Below are positions 17,288 to 44,456 of a stretch of DNA of 57,957 nt, one piece after another (positions within the stretch are counted from its first letter, which is position 1; every line of letters begins with the position of its first letter). This DNA is from a virus (Duplodnaviria; Caudoviricetes): IMG/VR virus record IMGVR_UViG_3300034375_000839, positions 1 to 57,957 of that record. One strand, 5' to 3'. The translations under genes were made by a program, and so were the position numbers. Under the pieces are notes generated by a model. The model searched no databases and was not told where the DNA came from. It saw nothing but the letters and a program-made list of their open reading frames with translations.

Positions 17288-20200
17288 ATGTCAACAGAAG
17301 AAAAAAAATTACAAACATTTTTACCTGACCCCTTTTCTCCACTTGGAAGAACTGTAACTGCAGGTATAGGCGAAGCTTTGTCAGATGCTGCAGAAATGGG
17401 TAGTGATGCTTTAGAGCTTATCTATGGTAAAAAAAGAGCAGACATTATTGAAGATAAGTTATCTAATGTTGTTAATTTTTTTGATGAAAGTTTAGATAAA
17501 ACTGAAGTAGGTAAAGCAACTAAGCAAGCTTTACAAAAAAGTTTTTATCCTACAGACTTATCTCCTATGCAAGAAGTAGGAAAGGAAATAGTTTCTTATG
17601 TTACTCCATACACAGGTGTAGTAAAAGCATTAAAACCTGTAACTAAAGTAATAAAGAAAGTATCACCTAGATTAGAAAAAGGTGTGAGGTATGGTACTGC
17701 AGGTGTTATTGCAGATGTAATTGCTAAAGATGAAAATGAACAGCACTTAAAACCTATAATGGAATTAGTTGGTGCAAAAGGTATTAGTGAAGAAGTAGAT
17801 GACCTTGTAAATAAATTAGATATAAATCCTGATGATACAGTATCAGAAAGACTACTTAAACAAACTATAGATAGTGCAGGTCTTTCAGTTGCATTAGGTA
17901 TACCTCTTGCAGTTATATTTAAAGTTTTAAAATATAGTGGTGGAAAAGCATTAGGTAAAGCTAAAGCAATTAAAAATAAAGTTGACACACCTGTAGCAAA
18001 TACTTCAAATAAAATTGCAAGTGATGTAAAGGTTGTAGAACAAAAGCCAGGTAAGTATTTACAGCAGGGTAAAATAAGTTCTGTTTTAGGAAAAATAAAT
18101 ACAGGACTAGGTAGAATACTTACATCTAAAGGTGCAATGCCTGATGAATTGTTTAAGGCATACATTAAAAGAAAAACATATTCAGAAGCTAAAGAACTGG
18201 CAATAAAAAATAATTCTAAAAAATTAGAATCAGTTTTAAAAAACGCATCTAAAGGTTTAAATGATGCTGATAAACAAAAACTATTAGATGATACTAATGA
18301 GCTTCTTAAAACTAAACAATTTGTAAAGACAGGTGTAAAAAAATTAGATGGTAAGGTTATTGACCCAGGCACTATTAAAGAAGCTTTAAAATATAGTCAG
18401 CTTTCTTCTAGACTTCCAAATGAAATAGTAGATACTGTAACAAAGTTAAGGCAATCTATTGATAAAGAAAGTAAAAACTTAAAAGACTTAATGGGATTAA
18501 GTAAGAATAGTAAACTTGGTGCAGTTATAGATGCAAAAACAAGTTTAACAACTACTCCTTCTATTGAACTATATCTAACAAAAACTTATGACTTTTATAC
18601 TAATCCTGAGTGGGTAAAAAAATTAAATAAGGGTTTAAAAGAAGCTAAGTCTTTTAGGGAAGGTGTTACAGATAATACCCATAATACAGAGGTTATAGAT
18701 GTTATTAATAATATGAGAACACATCTTATTAAAAATAACAAATCTATTACTGAGAATAATGTTGATGGTATATTAGATAATTTTATAAATGATGTAACTA
18801 AAAAGAATAAAAATAGTTCTGGTTTATTTGCAAATATAATGGACTTTACATATGATGGTAAACCTATTAAAGTTTTTACTAAAAGAAAAGACATAGATGA
18901 ACCTGTTGCAAATTTTTTAGGAGAAGTTAAAGACCCTTATAGAAACTATGTAGAAACAATGCGTAACCTTAATAAGTCTGTTGCAAAGGCACAGTACTTA
19001 CAAGATATAAAAAAGTTTGCAGAAAAGTATGCAGGTAAAGATATTAAATTAGGTGGCTTTATTCCTAGTTGGATGGGAGTTCCTAGTCAAGTATCTAAAA
19101 TAGTAAGAGATAGTGAAATAGGAACAAGTACTAAATTAGCAGACTTAGCTAAAAAAGAAATGGGTGCAATAGGAAGTGATGGCTCGTCTATTGGTCTTGG
19201 TAAATATAGTACAGATGATACTTTATATAAAATGATTGATGAAGGTATAGATGTTTTTGATAAGTATCAATCTGGAAATCTTTTTACTAATATATTTACT
19301 AGACCTGCAGGATATATACAGGCAACTGAAACTGTGTTTGACCAGACTGCACATGCAGTTAATGCTTTAGGAATGTTGCAAACATTAATTGCAAATGGAC
19401 ATATACTAAGAGGAAGGGAAGCTGCAAAATCAGCTAAAACTTTATATCAAAAATATGCAAATAAAGATAAAGATGCAATGAAGTTTTTTGAAAAAGCAAA
19501 ACTTGCAGCAGTAGTAGACACAAGTGTTAATGCAGAAATTGTAAGAAAGAATTTAAATGTTCTTGATGAAGATTTATTAGCAAGAGGTAGTTATAAAGGA
19601 AAAGATTTAAAAGAAGGTGCAGGATTAACATTTAGAAAAGGAAAAGAAGGATTTAGAAAGTTTACAAAAGCAACTGCAGATGCTTATGGTATAGCAGATG
19701 ACTTTGGTAAATTAACTGCATTACAGGCAGAAATTGCTTCTTATAGAAAAGCTTTTCCTAATATGTCTGAGGATGAACTTTTTGATTATGCTGCGGAAGT
19801 GGTAAGAAACACAATGCATTCTTATAGCACTGCACTTCCTGTAGTAAGAGCTTTATCAAGATTTCCTTTAGGTACTTATGCAACATTTCCTGCAGAAACT
19901 TTAAGAACAGGTAAGAATATTGTTATAAAAGGTGGACAAGATTTTTATAATGGTATATCAAATATTATTAAAGCATCAAAAACAGGAGATAAAGAGCTAT
20001 TTAAAACAGGACTTGCATTAGCTCAAATAGGTTCAAGAAGATTAAGTGGAGCAATACTTGCAGGTGTAGGTTTAGACTATATGTTTGGTAATACAGACAA
20101 AGATGATATATTTGGAATGGGAGTTTCTAAAGAAGACTCAGAAGGATTAGATAACTTACTTAGTGAATGGCAACAAAATACAACAAAACATTTTAATACT

Positions 20201-21172
20201 CCTATATATGAATCAAGAGATGGAAACATATATACAAAGTTTGTAGATGGAGGTGCATTAGATACTTATGCATTTATAAAAGATGCAGCTAAAGCTATGT
20301 ATGGAGCAGTTCTTGCAGGTGTAAATCCTGAAGACACTAATATTAAAGATGATTTTGATGTTGAATTTAATAAACTTGTATCTCCTTTTATATCTGAAAA
20401 AGCTTTAACAAAAAGAATGTTAGAAATATATCAAGGAAGAGATGAGTATGGCAGAGAAATAAACAGACTAGATTCTACTAGTGAACTATTTACAAAAGAT
20501 TTAAATCCAGGTTTTGTAAAAAATATAGGAAAATTATGGGAAGATTATAATTCTGAAAAACATAAAGAAAGAAATGAGTTGCCTATAGCAGGTTCTAGCA
20601 AAGGTTATCCTGTAGTTTTTGAAGATACTGTATTCCATAATGCTACAGGTATTAGAAAACAAACTATGAATATTACTAAAGCTATAGGTCATTTTATATA
20701 TAACCAACAACAAGAAACTAAAAAACCTTATGAAAATTATATTAAAACATTAAAAGAATTTCCAACAAAAGTATATACTAAAGAAGATGAGTTAAACATT
20801 TTAAAGGCATATGCAGATTCACAGTTTGAAAAAAGAAAGTTAACAAAAGAATTTGCAGATAGATTAAATCAAATTAAAGAAATAAACTATTATAAAAAAG
20901 TAGGCGATAAAGTTTATAAACAAAAGTTTGGAATGAATGTTATAGCAAATGCAAATGCTAAACTAGGTAAAAGAAAGATAGATAAAAATCTTTTATTTTT
21001 ATTGACTGATAAAGGGGGTGCAGGATATTTTAAACCTGACAATCCTATAGATAAAAAAGCAAGAGAAATTATAAGAGATAAAAAACTACCACCTGAAATA
21101 ATGAATAAATTAATCTACATCAAAAATAAATTTGAAGGAAGTGCTTTAAGGAAGGACATTGACAATGAGTAA
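17288..21172 (+). CDS. Large internal virion (ejection) protein
   Basis: 1294 aa, helical; RFPLGTYATFPAE motif; last large gene of the tail/internal block, as in podoviruses. Confidence 0.6.
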   Translation: MSTEEKKLQTFLPDPFSPLGRTVTAGIGEALSDAAEMGSDALELIYGKKRADIIEDKLSNVVNFFDESLDKTEVGKATKQALQKSFYPTDLSPMQEVGKEIVSYVTPYTGVVKALKPVTKVIKKVSPRLEKGVRYGTAGVIADVIAKDENEQHLKPIMELVGAKGISEEVDDLVNKLDINPDDTVSERLLKQTIDSAGLSVALGIPLAVIFKVLKYSGGKALGKAKAIKNKVDTPVANTSNKIASDVKVVEQKPGKYLQQGKISSVLGKINTGLGRILTSKGAMPDELFKAYIKRKTYSEAKELAIKNNSKKLESVLKNASKGLNDADKQKLLDDTNELLKTKQFVKTGVKKLDGKVIDPGTIKEALKYSQLSSRLPNEIVDTVTKLRQSIDKESKNLKDLMGLSKNSKLGAVIDAKTSLTTTPSIELYLTKTYDFYTNPEWVKKLNKGLKEAKSFREGVTDNTHNTEVIDVINNMRTHLIKNNKSITENNVDGILDNFINDVTKKNKNSSGLFANIMDFTYDGKPIKVFTKRKDIDEPVANFLGEVKDPYRNYVETMRNLNKSVAKAQYLQDIKKFAEKYAGKDIKLGGFIPSWMGVPSQVSKIVRDSEIGTSTKLADLAKKEMGAIGSDGSSIGLGKYSTDDTLYKMIDEGIDVFDKYQSGNLFTNIFTRPAGYIQATETVFDQTAHAVNALGMLQTLIANGHILRGREAAKSAKTLYQKYANKDKDAMKFFEKAKLAAVVDTSVNAEIVRKNLNVLDEDLLARGSYKGKDLKEGAGLTFRKGKEGFRKFTKATADAYGIADDFGKLTALQAEIASYRKAFPNMSEDELFDYAAEVVRNTMHSYSTALPVVRALSRFPLGTYATFPAETLRTGKNIVIKGGQDFYNGISNIIKASKTGDKELFKTGLALAQIGSRRLSGAILAGVGLDYMFGNTDKDDIFGMGVSKEDSEGLDNLLSEWQQNTTKHFNTPIYESRDGNIYTKFVDGGALDTYAFIKDAAKAMYGAVLAGVNPEDTNIKDDFDVEFNKLVSPFISEKALTKRMLEIYQGRDEYGREINRLDSTSELFTKDLNPGFVKNIGKLWEDYNSEKHKERNELPIAGSSKGYPVVFEDTVFHNATGIRKQTMNITKAIGHFIYNQQQETKKPYENYIKTLKEFPTKVYTKEDELNILKAYADSQFEKRKLTKEFADRLNQIKEINYYKKVGDKVYKQKFGMNVIANANAKLGKRKIDKNLLFLLTDKGGAGYFKPDNPIDKKAREIIRDKKLPPEIMNKLIYIKNKFEGSALRKDIDNE

Positions 21173-22665: not shown

Positions 22666-23052
22666 ATGTGGGGTGCAGTTATAAGTGGTGTGACGAGTCT
22701 TGCTTCTTCTTATATGGAAGATAGAAAAGTAAAGTCAGAACATAAAGCAAAAGTAGAACAGGCAAGAGTCAATGCAGAAATTAATAGAATTGAAAAAGCA
22801 GCACAGTCAGACCAAGACTATGACCTTGAAGCTTTACGACAAACAAGATACAGTTGGAAAGATGAATATGTACTTGTCATCATTACCTTACCTTTCATTG
22901 GAAGCTTCATACCTAATATACAAGACCATGTTCTCAAAGGATGGGAATATATAAACAAAGCACCTGAGTGGTATCAATGGAGTTTTATGGGAGCAGTTGC
23001 TGCTTCACTAGGTATCAGATGGGCTTTCAAGTTCTTCAGTGGTAAGAAGTGA
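22666..23052 (+). CDS. Putative holin
   Basis: Follows the endolysin; SWKDEY motif, two to three hydrophobic segments, basic C-terminus. Confidence 0.6.
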   Translation: MWGAVISGVTSLASSYMEDRKVKSEHKAKVEQARVNAEINRIEKAAQSDQDYDLEALRQTRYSWKDEYVLVIITLPFIGSFIPNIQDHVLKGWEYINKAPEWYQWSFMGAVAASLGIRWAFKFFSGKK

Positions 23053-23490
23053 TTCGTCTTCTTCTTCCTCTTCCATATCTTCAGGAAAAGCTTTTGACAT
23101 TAATTCAAGCACCTTGTCTATCCCAAGAATTTCCATACCCTTAACAATTTCTTCCTCTAAGGAATCAGAAGTTATCTCATCTGCATCTATATTATTACCT
23201 CTAATTCTAGAGAGCAACTCTAATGCTTTTAATGCAGAAGTTGTTTGTCCTTGGGTACGTGCAACATTGTATTGATTTTCTATTTCATCAACAACGTCAA
23301 TGCTTGTTGTCATGTTAACAGTTAGTTCTTCTATTCTTTCTTGAATAGCAGTATCTTGTAGTAATCTTGAGCCTGTGTTGTGTGCAGAGACTTGACTATA
23401 TCCTGCATCCTTTGCGGCTCTTGTTGCATTCCTATGTAGGATATAGTTCTGACAAAACTTTTCATGCTTTTCTTTAAGCAGCATTGTCAA
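23008..23490 (-). CDS. terS: Terminase small subunit
   Basis: KHEKFCQNY...NATRAAKDAGYS..SAHNTGSRLL...IQERIEEL helix-turn-helix and ALKALELL motif characteristic of TerS. Confidence 0.75.
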   Translation of the reverse strand: MTMLLKEKHEKFCQNYILHRNATRAAKDAGYSQVSAHNTGSRLLQDTAIQERIEELTVNMTTSIDVVDEIENQYNVARTQGQTTSALKALELLSRIRGNNIDADEITSDSLEEEIVKGMEILGIDKVLELMSKAFPEDMEEEEEDESLLTTEELESPSDT

Positions 23491-25756
23491 TCATCTCGTA
23501 GTAGTATTTTTCTTTTGCCTTCAAAGAGTTCTTCCAAACTTCAGAAACTAGTGTGTTAGTACCATGAACCTTGAGAGACATGTCCATATTCTTATCATCA
23601 AATAGTTTCTCACAGTCCTGTGCCATTGCAAGCAACTCTCCTGTAGTCCAAAAGTATTCTCCATTGGTTTCCACCTTAAAGTATTTAGGTTTACCTGAAG
23701 TTTTTTCTTTTTTCATTTCTTCTGTTACTTCAGGAACTGAGCAGTCAAAACCAAATAACTCAAAGTTTCTAAAGCCAAGTATGTGAGCAATGGATATTGT
23801 TCTCATGGCTGCACAAGTTCCACCTGATACCAATGTTTCTCCTTCTTCTATGCCTGTATCCTTAGCAATTTTAAGTTTATCTTTGACAGTCTTATCTCTT
23901 AGTGCTTCAGAGTAGGCAGACCAACCTTTAATATTTGCACCTTTTTTTATAAGGTATTTAGTAACTGAAGGGTCAGTCATAGAAGCTACAAGAAAGATGG
24001 TGTCCTTGTTTATCTTTTTAAATAAATCTTTTCTTACTACACCATGAGTACTTGTGCCTGTGATAGGTCTTGGGTCAAGTATAGAACATATAAAAGGACT
24101 GATGCCATGTTCTAGTAATTTAGGATAGCTGTGCTTAACACAAAAGATTTTAGTGTTAGGTTCTCTAGCTTTCTTTTTTAGTAAGTTAAAGTCTGTGCTT
24201 GAACCACCTGAAACAATAAGGGCAGTTTCATTATGTATTCTACCATGCTTCAACCAATTAAAATCTTTAATTAACTTTTTATTTTCTTTTATGTTTACAA
24301 ATATTTCATCCTTTGGTCTTGAGTCTTTAGGTGTAACCACAATAGGCATACGAGTAATTTCATCAGGTAGTTTTTCTACCTTCTTACTGTTAGCAACAAA
24401 AGCAATATGTGTTCTACCACCACCTAGAACTTTATCATTAGAGGGAAGAACAACTTTACCATATGCTTTTATTTCTTTTAGTAATTTATTAACACCCATA
24501 TTTTTTTCTAAAGGCTTCTGTCCAAACTCATCCTCAGAAAAGAAATCATCAAACACAAGTATAGGAACTTTCTTTAGATTATTATAGTCAGCCTTTACAG
24601 TTTCATATGAATGACCACCATCTATAAAAGCAAAGTCAACATTACGAGCTAACTTATTTTTCTTTAGTGTAATCTTAGAGTCACCTTTGTAAAGCTTAAA
24701 TATAAATTCTTTATTCTTCTCTTTCATTTTTTCTTTGAATTGATTTAGTCTTGTTTCAATAAGCTCTATTGTATGATGCTTCTTACTATTCATTTCTATA
24801 TCATCAGTAAGAGCAGTTGCTTCTTCAAACAAATCAAAACCAAAATATGTAAACCTGTCTGTGTATTCAAAGGCTGCAAGTGCCATTTCTATAGCTCTGC
24901 CACCATTCCATGTACCTACTTCAGTAAGTGTTTTAGGTTTGTAGTGTCTTATAATATCTGCAAGCTGTCTATATCTAGGTAACTTTACATCCTGTGCAAG
25001 AGTATTCTTTTTGTTTTTTAGATTACCTTTGTAGTGTATAAAATATTCTGAAAGAGGTGACTGCATGAAGGCAGTAAGACCTTTACAATTTTCTGATAGA
25101 TTGTTGACTACCATACCATGTGCCTTGTAGATATTAAGAAGTCTTTCAAATATAAAACCATCATGCCATTCTCTGTACGAAATAGTTTCACCTATTGTAT
25201 AACAACCTCTTAGGTCTGCAAGTATTGAACAGGCATCATGGTACTGTAAGTTAAAACCCATGAAGCTTGTTTCGCTGTAGTCAACATCTTTTCTTCCTAG
25301 ATGTACAAGACTTGCTTTGTTAGGTAACCACTTGTCAACTGCAGATTTATCTAGTCTCTTTGTAGTAACTGTATCTGCATCAAGCCATACTAACCACTGA
25401 GGTTCTTCAGGGTTCTTATTTTCTTCCATCATCTTGAAGGCTCTGTCAGTTAGGGCATACACTTTATGACACCACTTGACTGCATCTAGTCTCCAGTTGT
25501 AAGGCATTGTTCCACCTTCAGTACCATCATGCTTCTTCATCTTCTCACGATAGTCAGTCATTTCTTTTACATCATTAAGATGTATATATACAATGCTAGA
25601 AGAAGTAGGATGGTCAACCTTTTCAATGTCAAAATCATGGTAGTAAGCATATAGTTTAAAATGTTTTGGATTCCATTTTTCTGCCACACTTTTAAGCATT
25701 TCTTTTGCATAGGTATTATATCCTTCCTCGCTGAAAGAAGTTACGAATGTATACAT
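23474..25756 (-). CDS. Three-domain fusion: GT-A-like glycosyltransferase + class I SAM methyltransferase + DUF115/Maf-like domain
   Basis: N-terminal FVTSF..EGY..YAK, WCHKVYA, WLDADT (DxD), EWHDGFIF; middle EVGTWNG and FIDGGHSYETV..D; C-terminal ALIVSGGSS, ILDPR, GGTCAAMR..LGFRNFELFGFD. Start moved to 25756 (RBS AAGGA, no overlap with the upstream gene). Confidence 0.75.
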   Translation of the reverse strand: MYTFVTSFSEEGYNTYAKEMLKSVAEKWNPKHFKLYAYYHDFDIEKVDHPTSSSIVYIHLNDVKEMTDYREKMKKHDGTEGGTMPYNWRLDAVKWCHKVYALTDRAFKMMEENKNPEEPQWLVWLDADTVTTKRLDKSAVDKWLPNKASLVHLGRKDVDYSETSFMGFNLQYHDACSILADLRGCYTIGETISYREWHDGFIFERLLNIYKAHGMVVNNLSENCKGLTAFMQSPLSEYFIHYKGNLKNKKNTLAQDVKLPRYRQLADIIRHYKPKTLTEVGTWNGGRAIEMALAAFEYTDRFTYFGFDLFEEATALTDDIEMNSKKHHTIELIETRLNQFKEKMKEKNKEFIFKLYKGDSKITLKKNKLARNVDFAFIDGGHSYETVKADYNNLKKVPILVFDDFFSEDEFGQKPLEKNMGVNKLLKEIKAYGKVVLPSNDKVLGGGRTHIAFVANSKKVEKLPDEITRMPIVVTPKDSRPKDEIFVNIKENKKLIKDFNWLKHGRIHNETALIVSGGSSTDFNLLKKKAREPNTKIFCVKHSYPKLLEHGISPFICSILDPRPITGTSTHGVVRKDLFKKINKDTIFLVASMTDPSVTKYLIKKGANIKGWSAYSEALRDKTVKDKLKIAKDTGIEEGETLVSGGTCAAMRTISIAHILGFRNFELFGFDCSVPEVTEEMKKEKTSGKPKYFKVETNGEYFWTTGELLAMAQDCEKLFDDKNMDMSLKVHGTNTLVSEVWKNSLKAKEKYYYEMIDNAA

Positions 25757-25757
25757 A

Positions 25758-26531
25758 TTAATTTTCCTTTGGTAATATTCTTGAGTTGTATGAGTTGTGT
25801 AGTGTATCCCACTCACCTGCGTAGTGAGCATCACATAGTCTCTTTGGTTTCCAACTGTCAAACCAAGGACCACCTGTAGTAAAATGTACATTACATGGGT
25901 TTATTGATTCATCAGTCCATCCATCTAGGAAGTTCCACTTAGGATGGATAGAACCTATCTCTTCATCTTCTAGCCAACTAAAGTTATGTAGCCATCTACC
26001 TGACTGTTCATTAACATCCTTGATTGTAAGTCTTTTGTTGGCAGGGTGTTCGCAGTTCCATAGTATAAAGCTAGACCAATTCTTTCTATTATAATTAGTC
26101 TGTATTTGATTGTCCATTTTAAAAATTTCTTTAGGCTTGTACTCATGCTTAACAACAGAGACTGCATACTCATCAAACTGTCCATACTCTTCAAAGACTT
26201 CTGTTATGTCTGCTCTTAACAACATATCACAATCCATAAAAATAGCAAGACCTTTATGAAGATTAATAAAAGGTATTAAGAATCTTGTAAATGTAAACTC
26301 ACTACTGAAAGGTCTCTTGTCTGAAGAGTCTATCTTCTGATGTTGGTCATCAAGAAAGTAAGTTCTTTTGTAGAGACCTGATAAACGTAGGGATGATTGT
26401 TCAAGGGGAATGATATCATATTTATGGGTATACTTTTCTATTGAAAATTTTAATACCTCAAAAGCAATATGTTCTTTAGGGTCATACCCTACATATATAA
26501 CAGGTCTTCTACTAGTAAACATTTTTACCAC
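25758..26531 (-). CDS. Glycosyltransferase (GT-A fold, GT8-like)
   Basis: IYVGYDPKE, SEFTFTRFLIP, IFMDCDML (DxD), RKNWSS, WNFL and VHFTTGGPWF motifs. Confidence 0.8.
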   Translation of the reverse strand: MVKMFTSRRPVIYVGYDPKEHIAFEVLKFSIEKYTHKYDIIPLEQSSLRLSGLYKRTYFLDDQHQKIDSSDKRPFSSEFTFTRFLIPFINLHKGLAIFMDCDMLLRADITEVFEEYGQFDEYAVSVVKHEYKPKEIFKMDNQIQTNYNRKNWSSFILWNCEHPANKRLTIKDVNEQSGRWLHNFSWLEDEEIGSIHPKWNFLDGWTDESINPCNVHFTTGGPWFDSWKPKRLCDAHYAGEWDTLHNSYNSRILPKEN

Positions 26532-29509: not shown

Positions 29510-29854
29510 TTAATGTCCTAACACTGCGTTGATTCGTTTTCTTGTATATTCTACTTCACCTGATTCTAAAACTTTAAATGCAAACTCTCTCATATAATTA
29601 TGGTCAATGTTTGCATAGTCACATACCATTTTAAAATCTTCTGAGGTAACACCTACAGATGCAAAGAACCATGCCTTTGCCCTGTCTCTTTCAAGTGAGG
29701 ATGTCTCAGGCTCACCCTTGTAAGAAGGTTTAGTCGCATCAAGTAATGCCTGAAGGATGACACACATATATAATGTTTGTTCAGGAGTTGTTCTTTCTCT
29801 AAAGACATCTTCCTCAACAACAAAGTTTAAATTTGTATTTACTTTGTTATCCAT
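29510..29854 (-). CDS. Hypothetical protein
   Basis: 114 aa; VILQALLDA...AKAWF...DFKMVCDYA motif. Confidence 0.6.
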   Translation of the reverse strand: MDNKVNTNLNFVVEEDVFRERTTPEQTLYMCVILQALLDATKPSYKGEPETSSLERDRAKAWFFASVGVTSEDFKMVCDYANIDHNYMREFAFKVLESGEVEYTRKRINAVLGH

Positions 29855-30213
29855 TCTTTTGGTATCCCATCACTGAATTTGCAATACTTGAATCCATTCT
29901 TCTCACACCAAGTAGCATAAGTCATCTTTCCATTTTTGTATAGCTTCCTATTGGGATTATCAAAGACAAATCGAATGTCGTAATGAGGACACTGCTTTCT
30001 TACAAACAGATGTTTCTTTCTGTCCTCTAGTACGAACCTTCCCTTTACCTCTAGGATAATCCCATTACTTAATACAAAATCAGGAATATACTTTTTGGAT
30101 TCTAGCCATTCATAATTTATGATTAGCTTTTCGTATTTAAATGATACCTTATTTTCTTTTAAGAAGCAATAGGTATTGTACTCTGAATTAGAACGAAACT
30201 TATGCTTTGGCAT
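29839..30213 (-). CDS. T7 endonuclease I-like Holliday junction resolvase
   Basis: FRSNSE, YIPDFVL.NGIILEVKGRF...DRKKHL, DIRFVF, TYATWCEK.GF motifs. Confidence 0.9.
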   Translation of the reverse strand: MPKHKFRSNSEYNTYCFLKENKVSFKYEKLIINYEWLESKKYIPDFVLSNGIILEVKGRFVLEDRKKHLFVRKQCPHYDIRFVFDNPNRKLYKNGKMTYATWCEKNGFKYCKFSDGIPKEWITK

Positions 30214-31063
30214 TAGTAATTTCTTCTACATCAGGAGTCTTGTTAACCTGTGTTAGATAACGTACTCCTGTGGAATACTTGAACTTTCTTAATCCTTTGC
30301 CTTGATTAGCATCAGACCAACAATGTTCCTTGTATCCACAGAAGACGCAACCTAGTGCAAGTTTTTTATTACCTGACTTGCCATCAGGTTCATCAGGAAA
30401 ACATTTCTGAGGTGGAGAGGAAGACTTAACAACATCCTTGAGATGTTTGACCCTGTCAGAAGCATTTATCATATGTATACTTTCCACAGGCATGTAAGTA
30501 AGTTCTCCTGTAGATTTGTCTATTGCAAGAAAGCCTGCTGAGTCATCACCTGCACTCTCTGCATAGGCACTTATCTGAGATATGTAACCAAATGGGTCAT
30601 TGGTAGTAAGAGAACCATCCTTAAACTTCTTGAAGCTATAAGATGAAGCACTCTTTATATCAACAAGAGTACCATCTATCCTACAATCCTTATGACCCTT
30701 GACACCTTCTATCTCTTCCATCTTCTGCATTTCAGATACGTCATGTCCTGAAGCTTCTGCAAGAAGTATAACAAGAGACTCTAGGATTTCTCCATACAAA
30801 AACTTTATTTTAGTTTTAGCATCTAGTTTATTTGGTTTTATATCTGACTTTATATCATACCATAATTGTCTGTCAGGTCTTCCTATTTGAGAGAGCCTTA
30901 ACGTAGTTACGTCATCTCTCTTCTCAAATAAGAACTTCTCAATAGAGTCCATTACATTTTTGTTAAAGGTTTCTATAAAAGTTTTATCAGTTTTTCTTTT
31001 ATCTAAACCTTCATCAATAGTCCTGTAAATATCTTGGACTAATGTGTCTACCTTTTTGCTCAT
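30200..31063 (-). CDS. PD-(D/E)XK-family exonuclease (Cas4-like fold)
   Basis: LRLSQIG, GHKDCRIDG.LVDIKSAS, GYISQ..AY and CVFCGYKEHCW motifs; likely start MSKKVD at 31063. Confidence 0.75.
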   Translation of the reverse strand: MSKKVDTLVQDIYRTIDEGLDKRKTDKTFIETFNKNVMDSIEKFLFEKRDDVTTLRLSQIGRPDRQLWYDIKSDIKPNKLDAKTKIKFLYGEILESLVILLAEASGHDVSEMQKMEEIEGVKGHKDCRIDGTLVDIKSASSYSFKKFKDGSLTTNDPFGYISQISAYAESAGDDSAGFLAIDKSTGELTYMPVESIHMINASDRVKHLKDVVKSSSPPQKCFPDEPDGKSGNKKLALGCVFCGYKEHCWSDANQGKGLRKFKYSTGVRYLTQVNKTPDVEEITNAKA

Positions 31064-31122
31064 AATATATTCCTTTATAAAATTTTCCCACCAACCACAA
31101 CCCACTTCAGCATTAAGCTTAT

Positions 31123-31581
31123 TTAGAAAGGAATCTCATCAGAGTCTAAGTTATCTCCTGACTTATATCCATCAGGTATGACATCAAAGTCCTCACCTTC
31201 TGAATATTCTACAAGATTAATAACTTGGACTGCCTGCAGGTCAGCACCTATACCACTCTTACCTGCATAACTCCATTCATACGTTTTATAAAGGACATTA
31301 ACATCAGAACCATTTCCAACTAATGTTCCCTTGATGTCTCTCTTTTGAGAGTCTTTTAAAGATGGTGGATTGTTTTGACTACCATTCTTAGAAGTTACTT
31401 TTCTCTTCAGGGTAACAAAGTCTCCTCTATCATCATCTTTATTCTTTACTGCTAGACCTGAGTCTATAGCTTTCTTTTTATTAGCTTCATCTAAAGCTAG
31501 GTCAATACTCCAAACAGGCTCGAATGTAGTGTTTGGATTTGAAATAGATGCCCAATAGGCTTTACCACTTAATACTGGCAT
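31123..31581 (-). CDS. ssb: Single-stranded DNA-binding protein (T7 gp2.5-like)
   Basis: GKAYWA, LVGNGSDVNV and LQAVQVINLVEY motifs; acidic tail ending DEIPF. Confidence 0.8.
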   Translation of the reverse strand: MPVLSGKAYWASISNPNTTFEPVWSIDLALDEANKKKAIDSGLAVKNKDDDRGDFVTLKRKVTSKNGSQNNPPSLKDSQKRDIKGTLVGNGSDVNVLYKTYEWSYAGKSGIGADLQAVQVINLVEYSEGEDFDVIPDGYKSGDNLDSDEIPF

Positions 31582-38347: not shown

Positions 38348-38566
38348 CTATTGTCCTTTCTTGTTTGGTCTTGTTTTATCAAAGTATCTCATAAAGTAAT
38401 CTCTTGCAAGATGTTCATGTTTTTCTCCAAAAGATTCCTTCACTTGCTCAATGATTGTTGACATTGCCCAACCTCTAATCTTTGGGTTGGCTTTACCTTC
38501 TTTCATTTTAGTTTCAATAAAATTTATCACTTCCATTTTCTCATCTAAGTGTGGTGTTAAAGTCAT
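38348..38566 (-). CDS. Hypothetical early protein
   Basis: Short ORF with RBS AAGGA. Confidence 0.5.
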   Translation of the reverse strand: MTLTPHLDEKMEVINFIETKMKEGKANPKIRGWAMSTIIEQVKESFGEKHEHLARDYFMRYFDKTRPNKKGQ

Positions 38567-38820
38567 TGTTTATTTCCTTTCATTTTGTTTTTAGATTTCT
38601 CATTAGATAGTTGCAGTAATAGTTTATCTATCTCTGCATCTTGTTCGCTATTGATGTCTTCAAGTACTCTTATTCTTTCAAAGAGTCTTGACTGTTCATC
38701 AAGTAGGAATTTTTCTAGCTCAAGGTATGTAGATTTCTCTACCATGTTCAAGGCTTTCTCCTTCCAAAAGTCTGCCTTGTTTTTTTCTCTTTCATACCAA
38801 ACTTTCATTGGGTTTGTCAT
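38563..38820 (-). CDS. Hypothetical coiled-coil early protein
   Basis: RBS GAGGAG; helical composition. Confidence 0.5.
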   Translation of the reverse strand: MTNPMKVWYEREKNKADFWKEKALNMVEKSTYLELEKFLLDEQSRLFERIRVLEDINSEQDAEIDKLLLQLSNEKSKNKMKGNKQ

Positions 38821-38963
38821 TATCTTATCTCCTCTATACGTTCAATGACTACATCATCATAGCCTTTGTCTTTCCACTCATCTGCATCTTTCTTTGCATC
38901 ATTGTAGTTGGTATAGTAATCATCTACACCACCTACCCAAACTATATATTTGTATTCTTGCAT
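38820..38963 (-). CDS. Small early protein (not in ORF track)
   Basis: MQEYKYIVWVGGVDDYYTNYNDAKKDADEWKDKGYDDVVIERIEEIR, 47 aa; RBS GAGGAG. Confidence 0.6.
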   Translation of the reverse strand: MQEYKYIVWVGGVDDYYTNYNDAKKDADEWKDKGYDDVVIERIEEIR

Positions 38964-38964
38964 A

Positions 38965-39324
38965 CTACCACTCCTCTATTTTAAAGTTGCTGAATAACTT
39001 ATCATGGTCAATGTATCTCTTGCCCATAAAGGTTACTCTCTTTTTAAGTTCCTCAAGAGTTAAGTTCTTAGGTGATACTGATTCACCCATCTCATCACAT
39101 GACATGATAACTGCATTGCCACTTACAATGTAATCATCTATGGTAAAGAAGTAATTGTATTCTCCCAAGTTACCTTCCTCATCAGTCCATATGTCATTAC
39201 CATTTATTTGGTATGGATACATTTCTAACATGTTACAATTAATTAGTTCTTTTTTATGATGATAATCTACTACATCAGTTTCAACTATCAATTCATTCTT
39301 AGCATCTATAAAATAAGCTTTCAT
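38965..39324 (-). CDS. DUF3846-like early protein
   Basis: MKAYFID...IWTDEEG...IVSGNAVI..CDEMGES motif. Confidence 0.55.
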   Translation of the reverse strand: MKAYFIDAKNELIVETDVVDYHHKKELINCNMLEMYPYQINGNDIWTDEEGNLGEYNYFFTIDDYIVSGNAVIMSCDEMGESVSPKNLTLEELKKRVTFMGKRYIDHDKLFSNFKIEEW

Positions 39325-39413
39325 TAGTTTTCTTTCCTTTGTTGTTTAAGATACAATACAATAGGCAATTACTGCCCAAAATACTATTGTTGCGACTAGG
39401 TCATAACTCATTG

Positions 39414-39680
39414 TCATATTCCCACTCTCATTTCTGCAATGGCTTGCATTTCTATATCTTCAAACTCTAACCTTTCCATTTCCTTTTTTGCTAGTTGTAA
39501 GATACGTGACCTACTAATAGTACCATCATACTCATGCTCCCATTGTATGTAACCATCTGCATTAAAGATAATATATACATCATCTTTAACATCATACTCA
39601 CAATAGTAGTAGTCATTAGCAAGCATTACATTAGGTGGTAACTGCTCTTCATCAGTCTCTAAGTTATATATTATACCCAT
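39414..39680 (-). CDS. Hypothetical early protein
   Basis: Likely start MGIIY at 39680 after RBS AAAGGA. Confidence 0.5.
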   Translation of the reverse strand: MGIIYNLETDEEQLPPNVMLANDYYYCEYDVKDDVYIIFNADGYIQWEHEYDGTISRSRILQLAKKEMERLEFEDIEMQAIAEMRVGI

Positions 39681-39693
39681 TTTATTTTCCTTT

Positions 39694-40104
39694 CTATATG
39701 TAAACTTTAGGGTTACCATTTTGTGTTGAATCCATGTGTATCATACCAACCCAATCTCTTGGAATCTCATTCCATTCTTTAGGTTTGTATTGGTTATCAC
39801 TCATGCCTTGATGCATGAAGTAATCATCTTCATATGGGTTATATTTTACTCTATCCCAATCAGCAAACTCTTTCTTCAAAGATTCTGATGTGGATACAAA
39901 ATACTCACTCATATAGCCTACTGCAAAGGCATGAACATTCTTCTTACCTTCTTGTCGCACTCGCTTCTGTCCACCTTTACGAACAATAAAGTTACCTTCA
40001 AGCACTACACATTTCTTATGGTCTATCACTAGACCACTCTTGCAATCTTGTATGCTCCAAGTTTTCTTGTGTAAGTTCCAATAAACTCTAACTTTTTTCT
40101 TCAT
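39694..40104 (-). CDS. Conserved phage hypothetical early protein
   Basis: VRVYWNLHKKTWSI, G.KRVRQEGKKNVHAF and VKYNPY motifs. Confidence 0.6.
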   Translation of the reverse strand: MKKKVRVYWNLHKKTWSIQDCKSGLVIDHKKCVVLEGNFIVRKGGQKRVRQEGKKNVHAFAVGYMSEYFVSTSESLKKEFADWDRVKYNPYEDDYFMHQGMSDNQYKPKEWNEIPRDWVGMIHMDSTQNGNPKVYI

Positions 40105-40378
40105 TACTTTTCCTTTCATGTTGTTTATACCAATCTAAAGATGCTCCTCTAATTAGATTTGTATACTCTATACCATATCCACTTCCTGCCTTCAATGTTT
40201 CTTTATCAAGTAAGTGTTTATGCATATGGTCTATGTTATCCCAATTATCTAATATCTTTTTACATAAATAATCAAATTGGGTATCTTCTAAAACATTCAA
40301 ATCACATTCATAATATAAGTATGAACTCATTAGATAAATAGGAACTAGCCTATTATTTGAAATGTTATTTAATTCCAT
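40088..40378 (-). CDS. Stand-alone NAD+-dependent ligase domain Ia-like protein
   Basis: SSYLYYECDLNVLEDTQFDYLC resembles the YY..D.P.ISD.EYD.L NAD+/NMN-binding subdomain Ia of LigA; no catalytic ligase domain follows. Confidence 0.55.
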   Translation of the reverse strand: MELNNISNNRLVPIYLMSSYLYYECDLNVLEDTQFDYLCKKILDNWDNIDHMHKHLLDKETLKAGSGYGIEYTNLIRGASLDWYKQHERKSNEEKS

Positions 40379-40958
40379 GTATCCTTCTCCATGTTACCCA
40401 AGTAATTGCTTGTAATTCATATGCCTTGATACCTAGTTTTTTAGATGCTCTAAGGTAGGCTTTTTGTATATCCTTATACTCAGTCTTGGCAATGCTTGTA
40501 TTGGGTGTAGTCAATCCTTGTCTATCATTGTAGTAAATATTTCTTGCATGACCATCAATGGTAATATCTTGCTCATCTCCACTTATATTTCTAAAGAATG
40601 ATACAATCTTTTTACCATTTAGTATTGTAATTGTTTCTTCGTAGCTAGGCATTGTTTCAAGTATGTGCCAAGCTTTTGCCTTCATCTTATGATAGGTGCT
40701 TACCTTGATGCTATCCATATCATTGCCATTGATAAAGGCAGTACATAAATCTTTAGCATTAATAATATTCCTTTCCCATTTATTGTTTGGTGATAATGCA
40801 CTTGTTACACCAATAACAATATGAATAGGTAAATCCAATTCTAATGCAATCTTTTTACAATCAGTATAAGCATTTACATACCAAGTTAAACCATGTTTTA
40901 TTTCACTTGGATTGGCTAAATGATATACTAAAATAATATTCTTAGTTGTAATTGCCAT
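40365..40958 (-). CDS. Conserved phage protein, possibly HhH/DNA-glycosylase-like
   Basis: G..WY, SALSPNNKWERN, GKKIVSFFRNI, ITIDGHA and LQAITW motifs; the fold assignment is inference. Confidence 0.5.
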   Translation of the reverse strand: MAITTKNIILVYHLANPSEIKHGLTWYVNAYTDCKKIALELDLPIHIVIGVTSALSPNNKWERNIINAKDLCTAFINGNDMDSIKVSTYHKMKAKAWHILETMPSYEETITILNGKKIVSFFRNISGDEQDITIDGHARNIYYNDRQGLTTPNTSIAKTEYKDIQKAYLRASKKLGIKAYELQAITWVTWRRIHGIK

Positions 40959-40979
40959 TATTTATCCTTTCAAGAAATG

Positions 40980-41004
40980 AAAAGGAAGCACATAGTATGC
41001 TTCC
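40980..41004 (-). terminator. Rho-independent terminator-like hairpin
   Basis: Minus strand GGAAGCA-tactatg-TGCTTCC followed by TTTT, just after the 41016-41228 ORF. Confidence 0.55.
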
Positions 41005-41015
41005 CTAATTAAGTT

Positions 41016-41228
41016 TTACTTAACCAAGCTTATGCTTGATTTATGAACATTAAGCTTTTGAGCAAGTGACTCAATAAACTGTTCAGTTGTACACCACTTA
41101 CCACTTAGTAAGTCTTGGTTACTGTTTCTGAAAGTAACACTTGTTAGGGTTGGTGCATTCTCACTACCATTGTTATGAGAAATAGAGAAAGTTTTAAATC
41201 CTTTAGGATTGTATGAATTTTTAAGCAT
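41016..41228 (-). CDS. Early cassette gene 1 (hypothetical)
   Basis: 70 aa preceded by RBS GAAAGGA and repeat copy 1. Confidence 0.6.
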   Translation of the reverse strand: MLKNSYNPKGFKTFSISHNNGSENAPTLTSVTFRNSNQDLLSGKWCTTEQFIESLAQKLNVHKSSISLVK

Positions 41229-41309
41229 AACATTTTCCTTTCATTTAGTTGTTAATTGCTTAGTAGTATATATTGATTTCTATGTATCCATAGTTCAAAT
41301 ATACTTAGC

Positions 41310-41336
41310 TAGGTAGGAAAGGGGAAGCCCTACCTA
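41310..41336. terminator. Hairpin between cassette genes 1 and 2
   Basis: TAGGTAGG-aaaggggaagc-CCTACCTA inverted repeat; U-tract is weak. Confidence 0.35.
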
Positions 41337-41352
41337 ACAAGGTATACTTGGT

Positions 41353-41562
41353 TTACTTTAACCTAGCTATATTATTTTCTATTGCATCATAAAATATGTC
41401 CTCATTAAATCTTGGGTTTTGTGATGCACAATAAACCCTTACCAATTCTATTTCTGAATGAGTATAATTATTCCTAGCAATGATTTTAGTTATTTCTTCA
41501 AAATCTCTTTTAGTAGGATTTTTTCTAATCTTGTATTCAAATACGTCATCTCTAATCCACAT
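41353..41562 (-). CDS. Early cassette gene 2 (hypothetical)
   Basis: 69 aa with TKRDFEEI...NPRFNEDIF..A motif; RBS GAAAGGA and repeat copy 2. Confidence 0.6.
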   Translation of the reverse strand: MWIRDDVFEYKIRKNPTKRDFEEITKIIARNNYTHSEIELVRVYCASQNPRFNEDIFYDAIENNIARLK

Positions 41563-41604
41563 TGTTTTATTCCTTTCTGATTAGTTGTTATTATATATTG
41601 ATTT

Positions 41605-41838
41605 CTATGTATCCATTTTTCTAAATTTGTAGTATTCATCAATTTTTTCTAGTGTATTATGTCTAGCATTTAGTATATTAGATAAATCAATTATATCTAC
41701 ATATTTAGGATTAATAGATAATAATTCATTTAGTAATTCATCAAATACTCTTTTTACTTCTTTTACTTGATAGTTTTTAAAAGTATCTTTTCCAAACTTT
41801 CTTGTAATTTCTTCTTCTAGTTTTCCTGTAGTATTCAT
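41605..41838 (-). CDS. Early cassette gene 3 (hypothetical)
   Basis: 77 aa; its stop codon lies inside repeat copy 2; preceded by repeat copy 3 and an RBS. Confidence 0.55.
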   Translation of the reverse strand: MNTTGKLEEEITRKFGKDTFKNYQVKEVKRVFDELLNELLSINPKYVDIIDLSNILNARHNTLEKIDEYYKFRKMDT

Positions 41839-41891
41839 AATGTTTTCCTTTCTGATTAGTTATTATTATATATTGATTTCTATGTATCCAA

Positions 41892-42143
41892 TTAGATAAC
41901 ATTATTTAATTTACCTTGTTGTATCATTAATATAATAAATCTTTTTAACATATCTTTTTCTTCAATTAGATTAAGCTTCCTATTTCTTTTATTTTCTATT
42001 TCGTCATATGGGTAAATAAAACTATCATATAATAATTCTATGTTTTTATCTAAAATTATATTTAATAGTTTATCTTCTTTTATACGTGATAAGAAGGAAG
42101 CAGTATCTAAATCCATATCATTTTTATTAGTTATCATAATCAT
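41892..42143 (-). CDS. Early cassette gene 4 (hypothetical)
   Basis: 83 aa; ends 1 nt from repeat copy 3; preceded by repeat copy 4 and RBS GAAAGGA. Confidence 0.55.
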   Translation of the reverse strand: MIMITNKNDMDLDTASFLSRIKEDKLLNIILDKNIELLYDSFIYPYDEIENKRNRKLNLIEEKDMLKRFIILMIQQGKLNNVI

Positions 42144-42720
42144 TTATCCTTTCATTGTTTAATGATTTGTGTTTATAAATTTCTTATTAGTATATATTGA
42201 TTTCTATGTATCCAATATAGTTTTATATAGTTATTTCAATAACTTATATTAATATTGGGTAGTGGGTAGGTAGTAAGTAAATAATGCAATATATAAACTC
42301 ATTAGATTAATAATAGATTTATGTAATCTTTCTAATCTAAACAGTTTGTTTTATTAAAAAATTTATATAGATATATATTGATTCTTATGTATCCATTTAG
42401 AAAAAGGTAGTTTTTTGATAGAATTATATAGAATAGTATCTACCCCTACCAAAAAATCCTAGCTGTATATAATATATATATACCCTACCCCTAAATATTT
42501 TTAAAATTTTACAGGACTAACCATGCTCAACCTAGCTAAATGGGTCGCCGCCTGATTAAGTTGATATGAGTATTTATAGTTTGAGTATAAAGTAATATAT
42601 AATTACAATAGGAGGTTGGGGTCTATCTATTTACCCCCGGAGGTCTAAATAGAAAATAACATACTTTCCTATTTTATACAATAGTGTTATAATATTTTTT
42701 ATAACAACAAAGGAAAACTA
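42144..42720. other. AT-rich divergent intergenic region (candidate genome terminus / packaging or replication origin)
   Basis: Longest non-coding stretch, separating leftward early from rightward packaging genes; short GGGTAG/CTACCC repeats and inverted repeats. Confidence 0.45.
42665..42693 (+). promoter_or_regulatory. Extended -10 promoter for the packaging operon
   Basis: TTTCCT-17 nt-TATAAT with TGn extension (TGTTATAAT), upstream of 42721. Confidence 0.5.
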
Positions 42721-42933
42721 ATGTATGAGCTTTTTGTATTAGCATGTTTAATGAATGACCCTACCCAATGTAAAACTTTAGCAGATTTAAAAAGTCCACA
42801 TGACACACATGACAAGTGTCTAGCAAGAGCCTATGTCATTGCAAGTGAATTACATACTTATATGCCTGGGTATTTTCCAAAAGCATATAAGTGTTTTGAT
42901 AAAAACAAAGAAGAAGGTAAAATAAATACATAA
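42721..42933 (+). CDS. Small Cys-containing protein with hydrophobic N-terminus
   Basis: MYELFVLACL...C...C...YKC; RBS AAGGA. Confidence 0.55.
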   Translation: MYELFVLACLMNDPTQCKTLADLKSPHDTHDKCLARAYVIASELHTYMPGYFPKAYKCFDKNKEEGKINT

Positions 42934-44456
42934 TGGAAGAAAAAACTAATATAGAAAATTACCTAGACTTTAAGATTAACTTAGATACATATATTAATTT
43001 AAGAGCAAGAGATGACTTTCTTACATTTGTAAAAGTATTTGCTCCTACTCTTGTATCTGATTTTAAGATGGGTAAGCATATTAAGTTACTATGTAGTAAA
43101 TTACAGGGTGTGGTAGATGGTAACATTAAGAGACTTATGGTATTTCTACCACCTCGTTCTTCTAAATCATTGATATGTAGTAAGTTATTTCCTGCATGGT
43201 ATATAGGTAACTTTTCAAACCATGAAATAATGTCAGTTTCACATAGTGACCAGCTTGCTTCTGACTTTGGTAGAACTGTAAGAGACATAGTTAATACAGA
43301 AAAGTTCCAAAGAATATTTAAAGGTGTAGCATTACGTAGTGACGTTAAGGCAGCAGGTAAGTGGAAAACAAATAAGAATGGTTCATACTATGCAGCAGGT
43401 GTAAGAAGTCAGGTTGCAGGTAGGGGAGCAAACATTGCCTTGCTAGATGATGTCATGTCAGAAGAAGATTCATTTAGTCAGACAGGTAGGAAGTATATCA
43501 AGGAGTGGTATCCTGCAGGTTTACGAACAAGGCTTATGCCTAATGGGTCAATTATTATTATTAATACAAGGTATCACTATGATGACCTATGTGGTTGGTT
43601 GTTAAAGCAGGAAAAGACTGCAGAGCAAAGCACCTATCCCTGGGAAGTTATTAGTATTCCGGCATGGTTAAATGAAGAAGCAGCAGAGTTACTAGACCTG
43701 CCTGTAGGTAGTTCGTACTTCCCTGAGTGGAAATCAGACGAGATACTACGAATAGATGAGCAGGAAATCAGAGCAAGTAATGGTGCAAGGTATTGGAACT
43801 CATTATATATGCAAGACCCTTCCCCTGATGATGGTGGTATAATTAAAAAGAAATATATAAACTGGTGGGAGTATGAAGAACCACCTGAGTGTCAGTTTAT
43901 TATACAGACATATGATACTGCATTTAGTACAAGTAGAACTGCAGACTATAGTGTTATACAGACATGGGGTATATTCCATGATTATGACGAGGACTATGGT
44001 CATGCATCTCATTTGATACTATTAGGTAACACAAGAGGTAGGTATGAGTATCCTGAACTTAGACGTATTGCACAGGATTTGTATAGAGACTTTAGACCTG
44101 ACGTATGTATTATAGAAAAGAAGGCAAGTGGTCAGTCTCTTATACAGGACATGCGTAGGGCAGGATTGCCTGTACTAGATTATCTTCCGGATAAAGATAA
44201 AGTTGCCAGAGTATATGCATCTACTCCCATGATGGAAGCAGGCAGAGTATGGCTACCTAAAAATAAAATATGGGCAGATGATTTATTTTCTGAGTGCATG
44301 TCATTTCCTAATGGCTCACATGATGACCAAGTAGACTGTATGACTATGGCAGTACACTACATGAAAGACAGTTGGAACTTAACACACCCGGAAGACCCTT
44401 CCTGGGAGGATGATGGAAGTAAAAAGGATAAAAGGGTTGCGTACTGGAGGGTATAA
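42933..44456 (+). CDS. terL: Terminase large subunit
   Basis: RLMVFLPPRSSKS (Walker A), LLDD (Walker B), IINTRYHYDDL, nuclease YDTAF / IIEKKASG / HDDQVD. Confidence 0.95.
   Translation: MEEKTNIENYLDFKINLDTYINLRARDDFLTFVKVFAPTLVSDFKMGKHIKLLCSKLQGVVDGNIKRLMVFLPPRSSKSLICSKLFPAWYIGNFSNHEIMSVSHSDQLASDFGRTVRDIVNTEKFQRIFKGVALRSDVKAAGKWKTNKNGSYYAAGVRSQVAGRGANIALLDDVMSEEDSFSQTGRKYIKEWYPAGLRTRLMPNGSIIIINTRYHYDDLCGWLLKQEKTAEQSTYPWEVISIPAWLNEEAAELLDLPVGSSYFPEWKSDEILRIDEQEIRASNGARYWNSLYMQDPSPDDGGIIKKKYINWWEYEEPPECQFIIQTYDTAFSTSRTADYSVIQTWGIFHDYDEDYGHASHLILLGNTRGRYEYPELRRIAQDLYRDFRPDVCIIEKKASGQSLIQDMRRAGLPVLDYLPDKDKVARVYASTPMMEAGRVWLPKNKIWADDLFSECMSFPNGSHDDQVDCMTMAVHYMKDSWNLTHPEDPSWEDDGSKKDKRVAYWRV

Follow-up and report, generated by a model that had tools for sequence, protein, structure and literature searches.

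The window, that is, the whole stretch of DNA that was analysed, is the 57,957-bp virus record IMGVR_UViG_3300034375_000839, which represents a whole genome with an estimated completeness of 99%. Between two divergent operons, at the head of the leftward one, it carries an array of a 24-nt repeat, TGGATACATAGAAATCAATATATA, on the minus strand. The repeat occurs exactly at 41267, 41592, 41867 and 42191 and with two mismatches at 42372, and the start-to-start spacings are 325, 275, 324 and 181 nt. All five copies are on the coding strand, and we named them P0 to P4 along the direction of transcription, with the open reading frames (ORFs) of the array named A to D (Table 1). The exact copies continue into TATAAT (41867 and 41592) or TATACT (42191 and 41267), then into GAAAGGA and ATG, and four copies stand 29–53 nt ahead of this ribosome site and the start codon of an ORF of 69–83 aa. 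The ORFs (83, 77, 69 and 70 aa) are mutually unrelated (BLASTP, best E 0.026). P2 and P3 are identical at 45 of 46 nt, ribosome site included. The units abut: stop codons adjoin or overlap the next motif copy, as ORF A stops 1 nt short of the copy at 41867–41890, and the TAG of ORF B lies within P3.

The repeat is confined to this array. The 24-mer had no match in 100 dinucleotide shuffles. In a position-weight scan of both strands, the five copies scored 33.3–34.2 bits, as compared to 13.5 for the next best site and 8.6–17.5 for the maxima of 20 shuffles, and the scan detected no sixth copy in the 57,957-bp genome. The surrounding DNA has G+C contents of 0.260 (41001–42000) and 0.251 (42001–43000), the two lowest of the 57 one-kb windows. 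A separate, independent Logan DNA contig (run X12, 2235 nt) matches 40054–42288 with no differences, and therefore the arrangement is not an artefact of one assembly. On all these points—the four exact copies and the one with two changes, their spacings, the boxes and ribosome sites, the unrelated short ORFs, the near identity of two copies over about 46 nt, the abutting units and the AT-rich setting—the original prediction described the locus correctly.

Table 1. Features of the array, in order of transcription, and of the neighbouring genes
Feature	Position	Strand	Remarks
Sigma-70-like site TTGGTA-18-TATAAT	42423..42452	-	matches the consensus at 10 of 12 positions; about 30 nt upstream of P0
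Motif copy P0	42372..42395	-	two mismatches, TGGATACATAAGAATCAATATATA; heads non-coding unit
Non-coding P0-to-P1 unit	42215..42371	-	157 nt; inverted repeats GATTA/TAATC and GTTTATAT/ATATAAGT
Motif copy P1	42191..42214	-	exact; followed by the 53-nt slot-1 5' untranslated region ending GAAAGGATAAATGATTATG
ORF A, 83 aa	41892..42143	-	no known family; in slot 1, 2 or 3 in relatives
Motif copy P2	41867..41890	-	exact; 29-nt untranslated region, then ORF B
ORF B, 77 aa	41605..41838	-	no known family; last codons and TAG stop within P3
Motif copy P3	41592..41615	-	exact; then ORF C
ORF C, 69 aa	41353..41562	-	family in 16 arrays
Stem-loop between ORF C and P4	41296..41350	-	-29.2 kcal/mol, z -3.9; kept in relatives
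Motif copy P4	41267..41290	-	exact; TATACT box downstream
ORF D, 70 aa	41016..41228	-	constant last cassette
Intrinsic-terminator-like hairpin and T run	40982..41006	-	after ORF D; -15.3 kcal/mol, z -3.5
DUF7178 gene	40365..40958	-	PF23802, E 6.9e-40; first conserved gene beyond the array; downstream anchor in relatives
Gp2.5-like annealing protein	31123-31581	-	PHROGs
Cas4-domain exonuclease	30200-31105	-	PHROGs
Phage_endo_I	29839-30213	-	E 9.5e-37

Is the motif kept while the genes between its copies change? A search of relatives with the 24-mer had been set beforehand as the test of the array. Searches of viral contigs with the terminase and the DUF7178 protein gave 80 loci each, and a degenerate motif search of metagenome contigs gave 42 stretches. 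At least two motif copies were held by 36 loci, which reduce to 21 distinct arrays, 20 of them with readable content. Relatives with this type of motif, hereafter called T1, keep it at 21 or more of the 24 positions (consensus TGGATACATAGGAATCAATATATA), as compared to about 70–80% identity in the alignable flanking DNA. The ORF strings differ in 19 of the 20 readable arrays, the sole agreement being that between L026 and L029 (Table 2). The ORF families between the copies (A, B, C, E, G, J and K) vary in number, identity and order, just as expected for exchangeable genes between conserved elements. Counting the ORF directly behind a motif copy as the occupant of a slot, family A is in slot 1 in eight arrays (plus L088, whose P0 is lost at the contig end), in slot 2 in three and in slot 3 in one. 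Family B is in slot 1 in six arrays and in slot 2 in two; family C in slot 1 in two, in slot 2 in five (plus L088) and in slot 3 in two; and family E in slot 1 in two and in slot 2 in three. Family C also comes second within a slot or follows D. ORF D invariably comes after the final motif copy of the array proper. Six relatives (L013, L024, L087, L088, L179 and L031) have an extra copy of their own motif type farther downstream, after a terminator-like hairpin and before a DUF3846-like gene. This copy lies about 2.3–3.2 kb from P0 and is of the same type as its array. The counterpart in the window, 39325–39413, keeps the hairpin (39362–39378) without the motif.

Table 2. Gene order in the arrays of the window (WIN) and relatives; each plus sign is a motif copy and each letter an ORF family
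Array	String
WIN	++A+B+C+D
L013	++A+C B+D F
L020	++B+E C+D
L024	++B+C+D
L026	++B+A C+D F
L087	++A+C G+D H F
L168	++A+K u E C+D F
L177	++A+D C H
L179	++A+B+A' C+D I
L185	++C B+E+D F
L190	++B+E+D I
L194	++B+A+D
L199	++E+J+C B2
L206	++A+D u

The near identity of P2 and P3 over 46 nt resembles a recent duplication of the scaffold, and one might thus regard the copies as functionless leftovers of tandem duplication. This explanation is hardly credible, as the T1-type loci preserve at least 21 of the 24 positions while their surroundings are only about 70–80% identical and the ORFs are replaced.

Next, we located the positions at which the arrays cease to match. From the terminase side, the collinear match of the window with six T1-type relatives (L087, L088, L089, L096, L099 and L104) covers P0, P1 and the 5' untranslated region (UTR) of slot 1, and ends at array position 866–867, which is the ATG of the slot-1 ORF. 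With the T4-type L110 (T4 being one of the other motif types, described below), the match ends at 885. The block containing family C begins at the motif in L087 and, where C comes second in a slot (L104), exactly at the ATG of C. The 5'UTR of slot 1 always ends with ATGATTATG, whether family A, B, C or E follows, and in the sublineage of the window, slots 2 and later have ATAAYAACTAATYWGAAAGGA with B, C, A, G or J. The 5'UTR is therefore a property of the slot and sublineage and is independent of the gene that follows. Because the UTR is constant for each slot and the stop codons touch the next motif, the exchangeable module is the bare ORF, with the scaffold of 24-mer, UTR and ribosome site staying in place. 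In families B and J, the reading frame ends in (M/L)DT-stop with codons supplied by the next motif copy (41605–41615 in the window; also L020, L026 and L199), and the motif thus also forms the 3' end of these reading frames.

The copies within a genome resemble one another as well. Position 12 of the motif is A instead of G in most or all copies of WIN, L179, L189, L193 and L199; single-base exceptions are found at P0 in WIN and in L189, at one copy in each of L179 and L193, and at the copy far downstream in L179. Together with the 46-nt duplicate of P2 and P3, this sameness of the variable spacer within genomes points to copying between slots. P4 shows a change of another kind. In an alignment of 10 correctly placed relatives—with the WIN and L024 rows excluded, and L179 standing in for the window—four (L010, L022, L177 and L206) have an indel and lack about 22 nt in the 5' part of the motif, and the TATACT box downstream is kept in all 10. 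As far as sequence comparison can tell, the homology breakpoints at the motif and at start codons agree with the proposal that the elements are recombination anchors.

Our reading of the locus, to which we give a probability of about 0.6, combines two functions: the elements would be tandem promoter scaffolds, and the ORFs between them would be exchanged by recombination. Promoter activity is the most likely function of the 24-nt element, in view of the orientation of the copies, their place before ribosome sites and three further observations in relatives and in the array, which we consider in turn: the invariant TATATA, the pairing of terminators with motif copies, and the canonical promoters of a more distant relative.

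The first concerns the alleles of the motif. Close relatives, whose terminases are 92–97% identical, have other repeats at the same slots. Among 28 close relatives, 12 have T1 and five have T4 (GGATAGATAAGCAACAATATATA); T2 is represented by L010, with three copies ending in ATGTAACCTATATA, and T3 by L014, with three copies plus one T1 copy at P4. Three more (L011, L015 and L028) have T5 variants, called by eye, and the upstream DNA of the remaining six is too short to reach P0. The T2, T3 and T5 contigs found are about 4–7 kb long. All types have a GGWTAS 5' box, 11–12 variable nt and TATATA, the sole invariant part across T1–T5, and T1 and T5 also have TAGGA.TCA in common. These common boxes make the types look like diverged homologues. 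The second observation is that terminator-like hairpins precede P4 and the extra downstream copy of the relatives, forming terminator-then-promoter pairs. Finally, in L105, whose DUF7178 protein is 79% identical, the equivalent place is occupied by units, about 335 nt apart, in which TTGACA and TATTAT are separated by 16 nt and followed by a ribosome site. In some other lineages, such as L059 and L067–L069, each small ORF upstream of the terminase gene is preceded by a repeat of about 40–50 nt that includes a perfect hairpin, similar to the promoter-early stem-loop (PeSL) cassettes discussed below.

Each scaffold consists of the 24-nt element, a slot-specific 5'UTR and the GAAAGGA ribosome site, and the element itself is composed of an 18-nt upstream module starting with GGATAC and the invariant TATATA, which we propose would serve as the -10 box. 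Most likely, the host RNA polymerase would start about 7 nt after the TATATA box, presumably early in infection, and would produce short separate messages for the small proteins and one non-coding unit from P0. The scaffolds would at the same time be fixed homology islands within fast-diverging DNA. Recombination among co-infecting relatives and between slots would then replace, add, delete and reorder the ORFs, with junctions at the 24-mer and at the junction between ribosome site and ATG. The enzymes for this are probably the T7-like annealing protein, exonuclease and endonuclease I of the phage itself, which are encoded as a set on the minus strand at 29839–31581.

Several points weigh against this proposal. 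A canonical -35 hexamer is absent: TGGATA is only 12–14 nt from the TATATA or TATAAT box, a 17-nt spacer would give poor and non-conserved second hexamers (AATAAT, ACTAAT or ACTACT), and there is no TG of an extended -10. Some copies head no ORF—P0 everywhere, and up to three copies in the T2, T3 and T5 arrays—and L022, L177 and L206 have a copy with only a hairpin after it. In principle, transcription of all the units could also begin at the sigma-70-like site ahead of P0. The RNA runs found (shares 0.06–0.16) are assembled contigs of relatives, carrying no 5' ends; runs X17 and X19 gave pieces of relatives, with no cover over 41340–42275. As for the exchange, recombination at the motif is inferred from its end products, and the contig joints listed include no joint or circle in 41000–42400. 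Nevertheless, a distinct promoter class without a canonical -35, as in the original prediction, is plausible from the sequence. Sigma-54, extracytoplasmic function and extended -10 readings were dropped by eye, as the required boxes or spacings are absent.

Which factor would read the element? The 18-nt module might be the site of a phage-encoded factor—an activator replacing the -35 in the manner of sigma appropriation, a sigma-like protein or a shut-off repressor—which would make the array a factor-dependent regulon, with T1–T5 as alternative pairs of factor and site. The inferred geometry is compatible with this idea, as the conserved stretch would extend from about -30 to about -7, short of -35. 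Moreover, the identity of the copies stops sharply at the edges of the 24-mer, beyond which the flanks are slot-specific, and the copies differ as whole sets between arrays: the T4 records have four or five T4 copies and no T1 copy at three or fewer mismatches, and the far-downstream copy is of the same type as its array. However, the 79 ORFs compared with PHROGs and the 54 compared with Pfam (the 25 outside the Pfam scan all had PHROG names) include no RNA polymerase, sigma factor, helix-turn-helix regulator, MotA-like or AsiA-like family. For RNA polymerases, NCBIfam gave none either, a result that a very divergent enzyme could escape. L014 mixes three T3 copies and one T1 copy in a single array. 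In addition, the motif types are not clades on the terminase tree: L008 (T1) and L010 (T2) are sisters with 100/100 support, the T5 loci are nested in T1 clades, and the T1 label needs six changes, at least four of them forced by well-supported branches. Types scattered in this way over near-identical terminases suggest that whole early-region blocks have been swapped along with their motif type, and that the types work in the same phage background. The boxes common to all types fit better with a common reader, most simply the host holoenzyme, than with a phage-specific one. We thus consider a dedicated phage factor unlikely, and this part of the original prediction is weakened.

A variant that we entertain tentatively unites both ideas as an “expression rack”: promoter-plus-UTR scaffolds of a non-sigma-70 type would be read by an unrecognised specificity factor of phage or host, the ORFs would be exchanged from ATG to stop among co-infecting phages, and the T1–T5 racks would be swapped as wholes between phages whose structural genes are identical.

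Alternatively, the 24-mer may act at the RNA level, as a processing site or translational operator in a polycistronic transcript from upstream of P0. The sigma-70-like site just upstream, the precise placement of the copies after a stop codon and before the ribosome site that follows, and the copies without a following ORF would all suit such a site. The sigma-70-like site, with its TATAAT box, might drive transcription into the array as an ordinary promoter. A sigma-70 consensus scan of 38500–43200 yielded 27 sites, as compared to 32.2 +/- 5.0 in shuffles, and since the scan is not enriched, the site is no more than a lead. An RNA-level role is improbable in the light of the element itself: a significant fold is absent at four of the five copies (z +0.03 to -1.6), a strong stem-loop adjoining P4 only; the distance to the start codon varies by slot (29–53 nt); the invariant part is the TATATA box, and the equivalent in L105 is a canonical promoter; and terminator-like hairpins stand ahead of two copies. 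The stem-loop adjoining P4 may terminate or attenuate transcription, or may stabilise the ORF D transcript at its 5' end.

The promoter-scaffold reading must also accommodate P0, which the original prediction took for an empty slot. This was not borne out. The spacing between P0 and P1 is constant at 178–181 nt in 19 of the 21 arrays (the contigs of the other two begin after P0), a homologous segment is found in the aligned T2, T3 and T4 arrays, and the 157 nt after P0 (42372) contain no ORF of 40 aa or more. The P0 unit is therefore, on the sequence evidence, conserved non-coding DNA and not a vacated slot. Single P0–P1 sequences fold better than shuffles (z -1.9 to -5.9). RNAalifold found no consensus structure for 12 sequences of four motif types; for 18 T1 sequences it gave two short helices of -1.5 kcal/mol with one-sided changes only and no compensatory change. 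Rfam has no match within 40000–43000 at E values up to 1. This unit may give rise to a small RNA, or may take part in polymerase loading or in replication. The T2, T3 and T5 arrays have a second conserved non-coding unit of about 145–160 nt from P1 to P2 (700–880 nt upstream of the terminase gene in L010 and L014). L011 has no ORF between P0 and the hairpin, and three of its copies are without ORFs.

Such units invite the view that the copies are primarily DNA sites, either iterons of a transcription-primed origin or sites of polymerase loading for genome entry, with expression as a secondary matter. The array is the lowest-GC stretch of the genome and lies between divergent operons, tandem ORF-less copies are conserved (P0–P1 everywhere, and three in L011), and 13 of the 28 close relatives have contigs that stop within or close to this region, 400–715 nt ahead of the terminase gene. 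These contig ends are explained equally well by repeats and population heterogeneity. Moreover, the spacing of 181–325 nt is not helically phased, every copy is in gene orientation and most are followed by a ribosome site, and the copy 2.3–3.2 kb away in relatives precedes an ordinary gene. An origin or entry function as the primary role is thus quite improbable.

What are the small proteins encoded between the scaffolds? C, D and E show a clear excess at third codon positions; A and B show a weak one. ORF C is predicted to be a three-helix protein (predicted local distance difference test score, pLDDT, of 83.3, a confident model), and ORF D is predicted to have a beta-beta-alpha-beta fold (pLDDT 73.5); the mean column identity of D is 85% over 18 homologues. 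The homologues of C and D are unnamed proteins only, mostly from environmental collections (ENA, JGI and Tara). Pfam, PHROGs, NCBIfam and PADLOC gave no match for A–D beyond LmuB on C, which at 17 bits was taken as noise, and Foldseek found no match for C or D in the PDB at E 0.001 or better. In the wide VIA-align search, the best hits of D (a small archaeal ribosomal protein at Z 4.5, with phi29 p6 at Z 3.0) and of C (the helical part of DnaG at Z 6.1) were within the noise range. The family, defence and structure searches thus gave nothing to bear out the host-takeover or anti-defence roles suggested in the original prediction, which stay a conjecture.

The genome around the array is divided into two divergent operons. 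Rightward genes begin at 42721 with a small ORF, followed by the large terminase (42933–44456), portal and head genes, and the tail genes continue across the ends of the record up to about 23000. Leftward genes run from about 42400 down to 23008; they comprise small ORFs, a methylase, a primase-helicase, DNA polymerase A, a Gp2.5-like protein, a Cas4-like exonuclease, endonuclease I, a ribonucleotide reductase and the small terminase, and the array is thereby at the head of an operon of replication and nucleotide-metabolism genes. The small terminase (23008–23490, minus strand) is the final gene of this operon; the large subunit is encoded on the opposite strand, about 19 kb away. Beside it lies a gene for an 804-aa protein (23474–25891, minus strand) with a methyltransferase domain (Methyltransf_24) and an MptE-like domain. 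A 1294-aa protein (17288–21169, plus strand) has no Pfam, PHROG or NCBIfam match and a lone PDB sequence match at E 0.75; its look-alikes by language model are LPD38-type polyvalent virion proteins (Atlas score 0.97). Between the terminase operon and P0, at 42441–42492 on the minus strand, two G-rich boxes (GGGTAGGGTA and GGTAGGGGTA) stand on either side of a TATATATAT run, and they are kept in the relatives of all motif types that reach the region. The contigs of L007 and L021 stop in or just before the first G-rich box and TATATAT run, and those of L016 and L017 about 40 nt earlier. This region could be a packaging site, genome termini or an origin.

Among named phages, Pelagibacter phages are nearest, with 39–40% identity in the terminase and 47% in the DNA polymerase. 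At these identities, the phage is an uncultured relative of pelagiphage-like podoviruses—a marine, podovirus-like, pelagiphage-related phage of about 58 kb. A blastn comparison of the array with the named phages of INPHARED gave no match, and, to judge by the listings, literature searches on pelagiphage early promoters and repeated phage promoters turned up no description of such an array for this phage group.

The closest known system is that of the PeSL cassettes of T4-like myoviruses, and the comparison made in the original prediction is apt. As reported for these cassettes, a short regulatory motif is repeated within a hypervariable region, each time immediately ahead of small ORFs that have no known relatives; the motifs mark the limits of the insertions, deletions and replacements that distinguish close relatives, exchange between nearby motifs produces mini-circles, and promoter and terminator activity has been shown experimentally (Arbiol et al. 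2010, PMC2839356; Comeau et al. 2014, PMC4122927). By analogy, the array would work like PeSL-mediated modular shuffling: its motifs also lie in a hypervariable region upstream of relative-less ORFs and are followed by a Shine-Dalgarno sequence and start codon, and its indels and replacements between close relatives are likewise bounded by the motifs. In contrast to PeSLs, the array has no sigma-70 consensus -35 at 16–18 nt, has a stem-loop beside only one of its five copies, and resides in a podovirus-like pelagiphage relative of about 58 kb, not a T4-like myovirus. Furthermore, its copies all form one tandem set heading one operon, its ORFs swap at the ATG while the UTRs stay, and several allelic motif types replace each other as blocks.

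Other systems share fewer properties with the array. T7-like phages have tandem, strong, canonical sigma-70 early promoters at the leading end, which do not separate exchangeable ORFs. The array resembles them in being tandem, in having some gene-less copies, in preceding the first early genes and in its association with T7-like replication and recombination genes, whereas its copies are non-canonical and do separate exchangeable ORFs. T4 middle promoters combine a -10 with an activator box centred near -30 that replaces the -35 hexamer; the array also has a -10 element with a conserved box near -30, but the box sequence is unrelated, and, as described above, no MotA-like or AsiA-like protein was found among the annotated ORFs. 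The array differs from the promoters of phage RNA polymerases in T7-like and N4-like phages in that no such polymerase family was found among the window ORFs, and from the iterons of replication origins in that its copies are 181–325 nt apart, followed by a UTR and ORF, and not closely phased. Integrons employ an integrase, attC sites that fold as imperfect hairpins, and promoterless cassettes read from one common promoter. Like them, the array has a repeated site between short ORFs that are unrelated and exchangeable. The integron comparison drawn in the original prediction holds as an analogy only: no integrase or recombinase family was found among the window ORFs by the PHROGs and Pfam scans, the 24-mer is not an attC-type hairpin, with no significant fold at four of five copies, and each cassette has its own promoter-like signal with a TATATA box. 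Exchange in the array looks like homologous recombination at regulatory DNA instead.

If the elements are promoters, abundant uncultured marine phages keep a stable regulatory frame while they turn over their small early genes fast. Small early phage genes usually serve host takeover and defence, and the region supplies about ten small protein families (A–K) that are marked as accessory by their shuffling, together with short, portable candidate promoter alleles, T1–T5. The junctions at ATG and motif, as well as the block-wise swaps of promoter alleles, are concrete observations on phage mosaicism at the sub-gene scale. The PeSL idea would be extended beyond T4-like myoviruses to a different promoter anatomy. 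If the more tentative expression rack is also true, it would represent a recombinase-free gene-cassette system for early accessory genes in abundant marine phages.

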